A DNA stretch of 64,000 nt from an uncultured Chloroflexia bacterium (lineage in GTDB: Bacteria > Chloroflexota > Ktedonobacteria > Ktedonobacterales > JADMIN01), in NCBI GenBank assembly GCA_963718915.1, contig CAVRAI010000004.1:704504-768503 (forward strand), in the 5' to 3' direction. The translations under genes were made by a program, and so were the position numbers. Below the pieces are notes generated by a model that saw only the letters and a list, made by a program, of their open reading frames with translations, did not search any database and had not been told where the DNA came from. This document shows positions 41,959-44,421 of the stretch, piece by piece. The first letter of the stretch is position 1. Each line of letters opens with the position of its first letter.

Positions 41959-41987
41959 TTGACTTGCGCCCTGCGTTGTGATATGCT
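41959..41987 (+). promoter_or_regulatory. Candidate rRNA promoter
   Basis: TTGACT, a 17-nt spacer, then TATGCT, with an A/T-rich stretch (GAAAATT) upstream. Lies about 265 nt upstream of 16S. Confidence 0.6.
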
Positions 41988-42136
41988 CTCTTTTGCGTCT
42001 GGCGCTTGGCGTCAGAGCGGTGGTTGCCATCGCACAGTACCTGAACAACCGAAGAGTGAGAAGCAGCAGTATGCTCTAAGTGTTCGCAGTGCCAGGAATT
42101 TTCCAGCACTGTGACGATGCGGGTAGCATACGTCAA

Positions 42137-42147
42137 TGTTCTTTGAG
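42137..42147 (+). promoter_or_regulatory. boxA-like antitermination element in the rRNA leader
   Basis: TGTTCTTTGAG resembles the Gram-positive-type boxA consensus TGTTCTTTGA(A/G)A. Confidence 0.5.
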
Positions 42148-42251
42148 TCGTGCAAACGACGCAGTAACAAGCGAGTGGAATGACATGTATTGCGAGGAGG
42201 TCGCACGCGACAAGGCGTCGGCGGACTTGCAGGCATATAGACCACAGAACT

Positions 42252-43791
42252 TGGATGGCGAGTTTGATCCTGGCTCAGGACAAACGCTGGCGGCGTGCCT
42301 AACACATGCAAGTCGCACGGGGTGGTTTTCTTCGGAGAGGCACTCAGTGGCGGACGGGTGAGTAACACGTGGATAACCTGCCTAGGTGTGGGGGATAGCC
42401 TTCAGAAATGAGGGATAATACCGCATACGTTCGTGTTTCTGGGGGACTGGAGACGCGAAGGAAGTTTGGGGGGAGGCAAGGCCCTCCAGGCGCACGTAGA
42501 GGGGTCCGCGGCCGATTAGCTAGTTGGTGAGGTAAGAGCTTACCAAGGCGACGATCGGTAGCTGGTCTGAGAGGATGGTCAGCCACACTGGGATTGAGAA
42601 CGGCCCAGACTCCTACGGGGGGCAGCAGTGAGGGATCTTCGGCAATGGGGGCAACCCTGACCGAGCAACGCCGCGTGCGGGAAGACGCTTTTCGGAGTGT
42701 AAACCGCTTTTCTGGGGGACGAGGGAGTACGGACGGTACCCCAGGAAGAAGTCTCGGCTAACTACGTGCCAGCAGCCGCGGTAATACGTAGGAGACGAGC
42801 GTTGTCCGGAGTTACTGGGCGTAAAGGGTGCGCAGGTGGTCGCGCGCGTGGGGGGTGAAATCGCCCGGCTTAACTGGGCGGGGGCCTTCCAGACGGCGTG
42901 ACTTGAGCAGCGGAGGGGGACGTGGAATTCCGGGTGGAGCGGTGAAATGCGTAGAGATCCGGAGGAACACCGACGGCGCAGGCAGCGTCCTGGCCGCTTG
43001 CTGACACTGAGGCACGAAAGCTGGGGGAGCAAACAGGATTAGATACCCTGGTAGTCCCAGCCGTAAACGATGTCCACCAGGTGCTGGGCGGATCGACCCG
43101 TTCAGTGCCGCAGCTTACGTGATGAGTGGACCGCCTGGGGAGTACGGCCGCAAGGTTGAAACTCAAAGGAATTGACGGGGGCCCGCACAAGCAGCGGAGT
43201 GTGTGGTTTAATTCGATGCGACGCGAAGAACCTTACCTGGGCTTGACATGCGGTTGCACCAGGGGTAACGCCCTGTCCCCTTCGGGGGCGATCGCACAGG
43301 TGCTGCATGGCTGTCGTCAGCTCGTGCCGTGAGGTGTTGGGTTAAGTCCCCTAACGAGCGCAACCCTCGGGGTCCGTTACATGTTCTCGGGCCCGACTGC
43401 CGCGCGCAACGCGGAGGAAGGTGGGGATGACGTCAAGTCAGCACGGCCCTGACGTCCAGGGCGACACACACACTACAATGGCCGGGACAACGGGTCTCGC
43501 TTGCGCGCGAGCGTTGGCCAATCCCTAAAACCCGGTCTCAGTTCGGATGGCAGGCTGCAACTCGCCTGCTTGAAGCTGGAGTTGCTAGTAACCGCGGGTC
43601 AGCATACCGCGGTGAATACGTTCCCGGGCCTTGTACACACCGCCCGTCACACCACGAAAGCCGGCGACACCTGAAGCCGTCGGGCGAACTAGGGGCAACC
43701 CTGGAGGCAGACGTCGAGGGTGGGGTTGGTGATTGGGGTGAAGTCGTAACAAGGTAGCCGTACCGGAAGGTGCGGCTGGATCACCTCCTTT
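42252..43791 (+). rRNA. rrs: 16S ribosomal RNA
   Basis: GAGTTTGATCCTGGCTCAG at 42260-42278, GTGCCAGCAGCCGCGGTAATAC internally, and GGATCACCTCCTT at 43778-43790. About 1540 nt. Confidence 0.97.
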
Positions 43792-43975
43792 CTAGGGAGT
43801 ATCCAGGTCAGGAAACCTCTTCGGAGGCACCCTTGACCTCACTTCCATGTCGAGGTGCATGGTTGCCATTTGTGTGGTACCATGCATCGCAGAAACGTAT
43901 CTATTCGCATCATAGCGCAGGTTGCTTCTCACTCTTCGGTTGTCGCAGGAAGTCGTCCGGCGGCTTGCCAACTGC

Positions 43976-44049
43976 GGGCCTGTAGCTCAGCTGGTTAGAG
44001 CGCAGTCCTGATAAGACTGAGGTCCTCCGTTCGAGCCGGAGCAGGCCCA
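43976..44049 (+). tRNA. tRNA-Ile (anticodon GAU)
   Basis: Folded by hand. Acceptor GGGCCTG/CAGGCCC, anticodon loop CTGATAA, T-loop TTCGAGC. Confidence 0.92.
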
Positions 44050-44095
44050 CCCGCACATCGATAGTATGGTTCGCGATTTGGTCGCTTTGCCTTCT

Positions 44096-44168
44096 GGGGG
44101 CGTAGCTCAGTTGGGAGAGCATCTGGTTTGCATCCAGAGGGTCAGGGGTTCGAGTCCCCTCGTCTCCA
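44096..44168 (+). tRNA. tRNA-Ala (anticodon UGC)
   Basis: Acceptor GGGGGCG/CGTCTCC with G3:U70, anticodon loop TTTGCAT, T-loop TTCGAGT. Confidence 0.92.
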
Positions 44169-44249
44169 CCCATGTTGCCCAGGCAGCGCCTCCCAGCGTG
44201 ACCAGGTATCGATCGTGTGATTCACTCGCGAGTTGTGAGACGCGGGGGG

Positions 44250-44366
44250 ATTGGTGACTAGAGCGGAGGGGACACACTCGTTCCCATCCCGAACACGGTC
44301 GTTAAGCCCTCCAGCCCCCACGATACTGCAGGGGCAGCCCTGTGGGACAATAGGACGTTGCCACTC
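44250..44366 (+). rRNA. rrf: 5S ribosomal RNA
   Basis: Reads UUGGUGAC..GCGGAGGGGACACACUCGUUCCCAUCCCGAACACGGUCGUUAAGCCCUCCAGC...AGGACGUUGCCAC. This aligns block for block with Bacillus-type 5S as I remember it. It is enclosed by the GC stem CGCGGGGGG/CCCCCCGCG. Ends are +/- a few nt. Confidence 0.88.
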
Positions 44367-44393
44367 CCCCCGCGCACCACAACCGCACTCTTG

Positions 44394-44421
44394 GCCCGAA
44401 GCGAACAGCTCCGGGCTTTTT
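44394..44421 (+). terminator. Putative terminator of the rRNA unit
   Basis: GCCCG-N13-CGGGC followed by TTTTT. The stem is short. Confidence 0.5.

Follow-up and report, generated by a model that had tools for sequence, protein, structure and literature searches.

The DNA analysed here, a 64-kb stretch from an uncultured soil member of the Ktedonobacteria (Chloroflexota) that we call the window, carries a cluster of ribosomal RNA (rRNA) genes in which the 16S gene is followed by two spacer tRNA genes and then directly by a 5S gene, with no 23S gene. Gene calling with Rfam covariance models and ARAGORN places a full-length 16S rRNA gene at 42252-43791 (RF00177, 1428 bits, model positions 1-1533), tRNA-Ile(GAU) at 43976-44051 and tRNA-Ala(UGC) at 44095-44172 (both called by ARAGORN, and scoring 65.6 and 67.3 bits, respectively, with the Rfam tRNA model), and a full-length 5S rRNA gene at 44250-44366, all of them on the forward strand. 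The 5S gene scores 80.9 bits against RF00001, for which the gathering score is 38; it covers model positions 1-120, and loop C and the helices are intact in the alignment. An earlier note on this DNA, made from its letters, had described the same order and had taken 44250-44366 to be a 5S gene. Rfam and ARAGORN agree on the order, and the covariance model bears out the 5S call. The note had also rightly judged the space too small for a 23S gene: between the end of tRNA-Ala as called by Rfam (44168) and the 5S there are only 81 nucleotides (nt), or 77-81 nt depending on which end call is used.

The absence of 23S sequence extends well beyond this spacer. No match to a large-subunit (LSU) rRNA model reaches the Rfam gathering score anywhere in the 64 kb, which takes in 20 kb downstream and 42 kb upstream of the 16S gene, and no 23S fragment was found when the LSU model was run on 43700-44600 at a permissive E<=10. 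BLAST with a 23S probe likewise gave no similarity across the whole window. This probe, which replaced a crude 23S 3'-end motif that had proved unreliable, was taken from locus L014 (loci and contigs are given L numbers), the positive control, where Rfam finds a full LSU followed by 5S. The 81-nt spacer itself was inspected for a 23S fragment and for traces of a stem that would have processed the 23S, and none was found. Taken alone, it shows no unusual degree of structure (z = -0.5), since the 3' half is paired with the 5S trailer.

The genes are framed by the signals expected of a complete rRNA unit. A sigma-70-type promoter-like sequence, TTGACT-17-TATGCT with an upstream TG, lies at 41959-41987 (+) and is the presumed start; its hexamers are identical in the relative L092, and similar ones precede the 16S gene in L053, L136 and L029. 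Further downstream, at 42137-42147 (+), is a boxA-like antitermination box, TGTTCTTTGAG, which resembles rrn boxA and for which that function is predicted. It is followed by a conserved block, GTCGTGCAAACGACGC; box and block together span 42137-42163, and both are kept in L092 and L136. The 16S gene is bracketed by a predicted processing stem, whose 5' arm in the leader, AACAACYGAAGAGTGAGAAGCAGCAG (42045-42065, 21 nt), is conserved in sequence in relatives and is 100% complementary to the 3' arm in the trailer (43923-43943). The earlier note had recognized this stem and had given its length as 22 bp; the stem is present, and its computed length is 21 bp. The promoter-like sequence, the boxA-like element, the GC stem around the 5S, the hairpin with its T-run and the start of coaBC, the gene that follows, all lie where that note had put them, exactly or to within a handful of bases.

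The 5S gene is enclosed by a helix of its own that continues its helix I. The arms at 44232-44249 and 44367-44383 are complementary, with a duplex energy of -50 kcal/mol. As computed, the enclosing stem pairs 44232-44254 with 44361-44383 (23 nt, 83% complementary) around a core of CGCGGGGGG/CCCCCCGCG at 44241-44249 / 44366-44374. RNAalifold, applied to 15 sequences, shows that the first nine pairs beyond helix I hold in every sequence, seven of them with double-sided compensatory changes, and that the next five pairs likewise covary. A helix of this kind encloses each 5S copy, whatever its context. Thus, from covariation there is good evidence that it represents a conserved structure, predicted to act in precursor processing. 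Beyond it lies an intrinsic terminator (44393-44422, +), consisting of a GC-rich hairpin at 44393-44417 and U5 at 44418-44422 (fold -18 kcal/mol, z = -3.5), the pairing of which persists in L002 and L006 although bases have changed.

Relatives of the window were reached through coaBC homologs, many of them at 85-90% identity in soil metagenomes, and the contigs carrying them were then fetched. The order 16S, tRNA-Ile, tRNA-Ala, 5S, coaBC is found in four independent JGI assemblies (L002, L003, L005, L006), and a metagenome scan yielded three further JGI contigs in which the order runs from 16S through both tRNAs to 5S (L128, L136, L137). A scan of genome collections with one 5S 30-mer pattern, from which all counts hold among the matches listed, assigns the clade to Ktedonobacteria and adds at least seven loci of GTDB metagenome-assembled genomes (MAGs) with the same layout (L024, L029, L053, L087, L092, L107, L122). 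Counting the window, the layout occurs in at least 15 independent assemblies, made up of metagenome contigs and MAGs. Synteny in relatives supports the unit as well. L092 lies on a contig of 1.65 Mb in which coaBC, 90% identical to that of the window, comes immediately after the 5S. L053, on a 274-kb contig, is syntenic on both sides, with a homolog of a YgjP-like gene, 16S, tRNAs, two 5S genes and coaBC in succession. The relatives with large contigs are MFD05502.bin.2.92 (contig CAVQGK010000024.1) and MFD00031.bin.2.93 (contig CAVPBB010000002.1). The 5S-coaBC neighbourhood is retained in L092, L053, L122 and L020. Within L092, coaBC and a downstream PMT-family gene (1500-5200) match the window proteins in several reading frames, which indicates that this assembly carries indel errors.

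The identity of the 16S gene to that of the window falls from 94.9% in L092 and 93.7% in L002 to 87.3% in L053 and 80.4% in L029, and therefore the layout spans a divergence that is usual between families or orders. The spacers between tRNA-Ala and 5S are unique sequences of 46-87 nt across these loci; in L029 and L087 they are 46 nt long, with about half of the length taken up by the helix arm. Across these uncultured loci, namely metagenome contigs and MAGs, the layout appears to be class-wide in Ktedonobacteria.

The 5S 30-mer is not specific to the clade. The majority of the matches listed belong to Gemmatimonadota, and the 119 listed genome loci that have the 30-mer in common served for comparison as a control set. 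Among these 119 listed loci, only those of Ktedonobacteria have tRNA-Ile and tRNA-Ala, together with the 3' end of a 16S gene, in the roughly 500 nt that precede the 5S. For the other phyla in the set, BLAST finds a 23S gene in the locus for 56 of 66 evaluable 5S copies; the same probe detected no 23S similarity in any of the Ktedonobacteria 16S-5S loci. The view that the architecture is unusual is sustained: it is a true departure from the order 16S-(tRNA)-23S-5S, and among the listed loci it recurs in Ktedonobacteria only. In the window, and also in the loci of relatives, no 23S lies within the 1500 bp of the 16S beyond which Brewer et al. regard rRNA genes as unlinked. The 5S genes at L063 2889-3004 and L077 6587-6702, both from Candidatus Binatia MAGs, and at L117 4124-4239 are preceded by 2.9-6.5 kb in which there is no 23S, and the 5S of L063 and that of L077 are each followed by a tRNA. 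These are possible cases of 5S unlinked from 23S in another phylum.

One MAG, 'clean2', contains both halves of the rRNA complement. Its contig L024 has 16S, tRNA-Ile, tRNA-Ala and 5S, while the separate contig L123 has a 23S 3' end (LSU model 2775-2925, 98.5 bits), a tRNA-Met(CAU) and a 5S gene. The proposal that unlinked 23S and 16S genes are found in this clade, with the 23S keeping its own 5S, is therefore supported by what was caught in this one genome. The earlier note had envisaged a 23S encoded elsewhere without its 5S; the first part of this stands, as L123 against L024 shows, and the second does not, as the 23S is followed by tRNA-Met and a 5S of its own. The tRNA-Met(CAU) that lies between 23S and 5S (L123 214-289) has a C1:U72 mismatch atop the acceptor stem and is in this respect initiator-like; the candidates for its identity are initiator, elongator and tRNA-Ile2.

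The 5S gene recurs in these genomes as part of a repeat of about 200 nt, here referred to as the 5S cassette (44222-44425, +, in the window), which comprises leader arm, 5S, trailer arm and terminator and is found in other contexts in relatives. In L001, L096, L130 and L132, similarity to the window or to one another is confined to this segment. L096 is a second 5S contig of the MAG that also contains L007, and the two have in common only about 190 nt, from leader arm through 5S and trailer arm to terminator. L001 and L004 have an identical coaBC protein and agree with L002 at 99.95% along 10.9 kb of downstream sequence, with protein genes at the place that 16S and tRNAs occupy in L002. The similarity of these two contigs to L002 and the window starts 28-29 nt 5' of the 5S, and just 5' of where the similarity to L002 starts is a near-consensus promoter, TTGACA-N18-TATACT. 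The same promoter-leader-5S module is present in L097, L132, L133, L134 and L135. Stand-alone 5S copies with such a promoter (L001 9660-9740, L097 1060-1130) have leader arm, 5S, trailer arm and terminator as in the 16S-linked copy; the one in L001 is located downstream of a DUF1641 (PF07849) gene.

All four combinations of sequence entering and leaving the cassette are found. The 16S side is joined to coaBC in many loci, and in L130 the 16S side (the side of tRNA-Ala) is joined to the sequence that lies downstream of the 5S in L096. The own promoter is joined to coaBC in L001 and L004, and to that same downstream sequence of L096 in L132. The contigs concerned are JGI Ga0068856_100000723, Ga0207702_10002583, Ga0207663_10342071 and Ga0310811_10001763 (L001/L004, L002, L130, L132). 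Four contexts around an identical segment of about 200 nt imply that these genomes have at least two near-identical cassettes, which short-read assemblers have cross-joined, and therefore that some public short-read metagenome contigs are chimeric at this point. Which pairing is the true one is evident from the large contigs, where it is 16S-5S-coaBC. That L001 and L004 might represent a strain variant without 16S was considered and ruled out by the combinations in L132 and L130 and by the large contigs. In more distant Ktedonobacteria relatives, 5S genes also stand in tandem about 200 nt apart (L020 1-312, L053 3985-4302, L122 555-897), every copy enclosed in a helix of its own and with coaBC still following. 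Since the cassette occurs behind its own promoter, behind 23S-tRNA-Met and in tandem, 5S genes probably outnumber 16S genes in these genomes.

Taken together, these data make it probable that the locus is a genuine and conserved non-canonical rRNA transcription unit of the Ktedonobacteria, consisting of promoter, boxA-like leader, 16S, tRNA-Ile(GAU), tRNA-Ala(UGC), 5S and terminator, with the 23S unlinked. A single primary transcript would be initiated at 41959-41987. The 21-bp leader/trailer stem may then free pre-16S by an RNase III-type cut, and the two tRNAs would be freed by RNase P and RNase Z. The helix 44232-44249 / 44367-44383 could be the substrate for release of pre-5S, and transcription would end at the hairpin-U5 of 44393-44422, ahead of coaBC. 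The 5S appears to move as a cassette of about 200 nt made up of processing helix, 5S and terminator, and the cassette would provide the 16S unit with its terminator.

Several observations weigh against such a unit, and they bear on three alternatives. The one that survives best, unlikely as it seems to us, is that 16S and 5S are adjacent and separately transcribed: the 16S-tRNA unit would stop ahead of the 5S, a promoter of its own would serve the 5S or tRNA-Ala and 5S, and the neighbourhood would then be no operon. The identical cassette does stand behind TTGACA-N18-TATACT in L001, L004, L097, L132 and L135, and independent 5S expression therefore appears feasible in the clade. In L029, a strong promoter-like sequence, TTGACA-17-TATGAT (4308-4336 on the minus strand, which is the rRNA strand), lies between tRNA-Ile and tRNA-Ala; it matches at 11/12 positions, has the TG, and is a possible internal promoter for tRNA-Ala and 5S in that lineage. 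In addition, a weak 5-bp hairpin with a T-rich tail, GCGATTTGGTCGC TTTGCCTTCT, is found between the two tRNAs in the window (44073-44085) and in L002 (1830-1842). However, the count of such weak hairpins in the scan is within chance expectation, and no promoter-like site was found between 16S and 5S in the window, L002 or L053. The spacers of 46-87 nt between tRNA-Ala and 5S are very short and consist largely of helix arm. Promoter, leader arm and boxA-like antitermination box are conserved upstream of the 16S, and the sole strong terminator is the one downstream of the 5S. From these features we infer that 16S, tRNAs and 5S are co-transcribed as a single unit.

Still less probable is a degenerate copy, in which one rrn operon has deleted its 23S and functional canonical 16S-23S-5S operons exist elsewhere in the genome. 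The 64-kb window is only part of a genome, and several rRNA operons have been reported in cultured Ktedonobacteria (PMC3236041, PMC6497799). L123 starts within the 23S, and what lies upstream is beyond the contig; a 16S upstream of that 23S, and hence a coexisting canonical operon, is possible. The 23S of the window's own genome or genus was not located via the proteins that neighbour the L123 5S, among which no conserved synteny was found. The haloalkane-dehalogenase gene beside this 5S was followed as a lead to a fuller 23S unit, and the homologs in relatives are not beside rRNA genes; the near-identical Logan contig stops before the 5S. On the other hand, the layout persists down to 80-87% 16S identity, and its promoter, boxA-like box, processing stems and terminator are all intact, which argues for purifying selection rather than decay, and which makes the precise loss of 23S from one operon copy, as suggested in the earlier note, unlikely as a recent event. 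The 16S also scores as full length. Contigs of close relatives (L002, L136, L137) cross the whole region from 16S through the internal transcribed spacer and tRNAs to 5S unbroken, an outcome that one would not expect in the presence of an identical 16S copy with other sequence downstream. Finally, no junction between tRNA-Ala and 23S was found in any Ktedonobacteria locus fetched.

The last alternative, an assembly collapse or mis-join in which the assembler dropped the 23S from a true 16S-tRNAs-23S-5S locus, is in effect disproved: rRNA regions are classic trouble spots of assembly, and short-read contigs of relatives, not fully reliable around the 5S cassette, cross-join there in all four combinations, but those cross-joins exchange flanks outside the cassette and leave the link between tRNA-Ala and 5S untouched, the creation of such a junction by an assembler needs shared sequence and the unique spacer of 46-87 nt has no 23S similarity, and the junction, contrary to the collapse that the earlier note had considered, is present in at least 15 independent assemblies, among them the window, seven JGI contigs and at least seven MAG loci, with the 1.65-Mb and 274-kb contigs and the 64-kb window mutually consistent.

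A broader model can also be put forward, which we regard as tentative and somewhat less than an even bet. The rRNA genes of these bacteria may be organized in two units, 16S-tRNA-Ile-tRNA-Ala-5S and 23S-tRNA-Met-5S, each closed by the same type of self-contained 5S cassette, of which additional copies are free-standing with their own promoter or arranged in tandem. The 5S would then be uncoupled from the 23S, present in a two- to three-fold excess and partly tied to the output of small-subunit rRNA, and the cassette would be a duplicating module whose insertion, with its terminator, before the 23S could have been what split the ancestral operon.

Outside the unit, the downstream neighbour coaBC (44516-45763, +) is the conserved synteny anchor of the locus; it has the Pfam domains Flavoprotein and DFP and gives a full-length match to homologs of 415 aa. 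Upstream is a YgjP-like metallopeptidase gene (40933-41763, -; Pfam PF01863). Directly 3' of coaBC, very large genes of the PMT/DUF2298 glycosyltransferase-like kind form a conserved block (45817-55700 in the window, 11403-21248 in L001), with products of 870-1550 aa in relatives. A lone tRNA-Ala(GGC) lies at 34756-34830 (+), some 7 kb ahead of the rRNA unit; its similarity to the spacer tRNA-Ala(UGC) of relatives is 80%. A thiamine pyrophosphate (TPP) riboswitch at 13469-13580 (-; RF00059, 61 bits) has no relation to the rRNA unit.

In the textbook view, 5S is kept with 23S since both enter the large subunit and co-transcription balances them. Widespread soil bacteria in which a 5S closes the small-subunit rRNA unit, and which have extra 5S copies, pose the problem of how the rRNAs stay in balance once the operon is split. 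There are practical consequences as well. Long-amplicon methods that span 16S, internal transcribed spacer and 23S will miss these abundant soil bacteria, and tools for rRNA-operon copy number that assume a ratio of 1:1:1 will miscount Ktedonobacteria with this layout. For metagenome assembly, the 5S cassette of about 200 nt is a repeat with demonstrable cross-joins in public short-read contigs.

Canonical rrn operons with spacer tRNAs for Ile and Ala, such as rrnA, rrnD and rrnH of E. coli, have the order 16S-tRNA-Ile-tRNA-Ala-23S-5S. The unit in the window resembles them in its promoter, boxA-like leader, long 16S stem, tRNA-Ile(GAU) and tRNA-Ala(UGC) after the 16S, terminal 5S and intrinsic terminator. 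It differs in lacking the 23S and the stem that flanks it, so that tRNA-Ala and 5S are 77-81 nt apart. Extra or orphan 5S genes are also known: E. coli rrnD has two 5S genes, and orphan copies exist in Helicobacter pylori and Francisella. As in those systems, 5S genes here appear to be more numerous than 16S or 23S genes, with both tandem (L020, L053, L122) and stand-alone (L001, L097, L132) copies. Unlike them, one 5S here is the regular and class-conserved 3' end of the 16S unit, not an occasional supplement to an operon that is otherwise complete. In Bacillus subtilis, RNase M5, which is specific for double strands, cleaves a pre-5S whose helix I is extended, and RNase III-type stems surround 16S and 23S. 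The long helix described here, which prolongs helix I of the 5S by 9 + 5 or more covarying bp, is similar to such a pre-5S and constitutes a putative processing substrate.

Closest to the present case are genomes with unlinked rRNA genes. Unlinked 16S and 23S are common, and the survey of Brewer et al. (2020, preprint 10.1101/705046) names Deinococcus-Thermus, Chloroflexi/Dehalococcoidia, Planctomycetes and Rickettsiales, among others; it ignores 5S and makes no mention of Ktedonobacteria. The likeness lies in the placement of 16S and 23S in separate units, in a phylum, Chloroflexi, already known for it, and in the 5S at the end of the 23S unit (L123). The remark in the earlier note that unlinked genomes keep 5S with 23S holds, and the novelty is the additional 5S on the 16S unit. 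In the usual form, the 16S stands alone and 5S accompanies only the 23S, whereas here the 16S unit carries spacer tRNAs and a 5S of its own, and the 23S unit has a tRNA-Met between 23S and 5S (L123). Genome papers on Ktedonobacteria give only counts of rRNA genes (PMC3236041, PMC6497799, PMC13289182), and a literature search for a 16S-5S unit or for the order of rRNA genes in this class found no description. This class-wide unit, which retains spacer tRNAs and a 5S next to the 16S and from which the 23S has parted together with a different 5S, thus appears to be previously undescribed, and it extends the known theme of the split rRNA operon.

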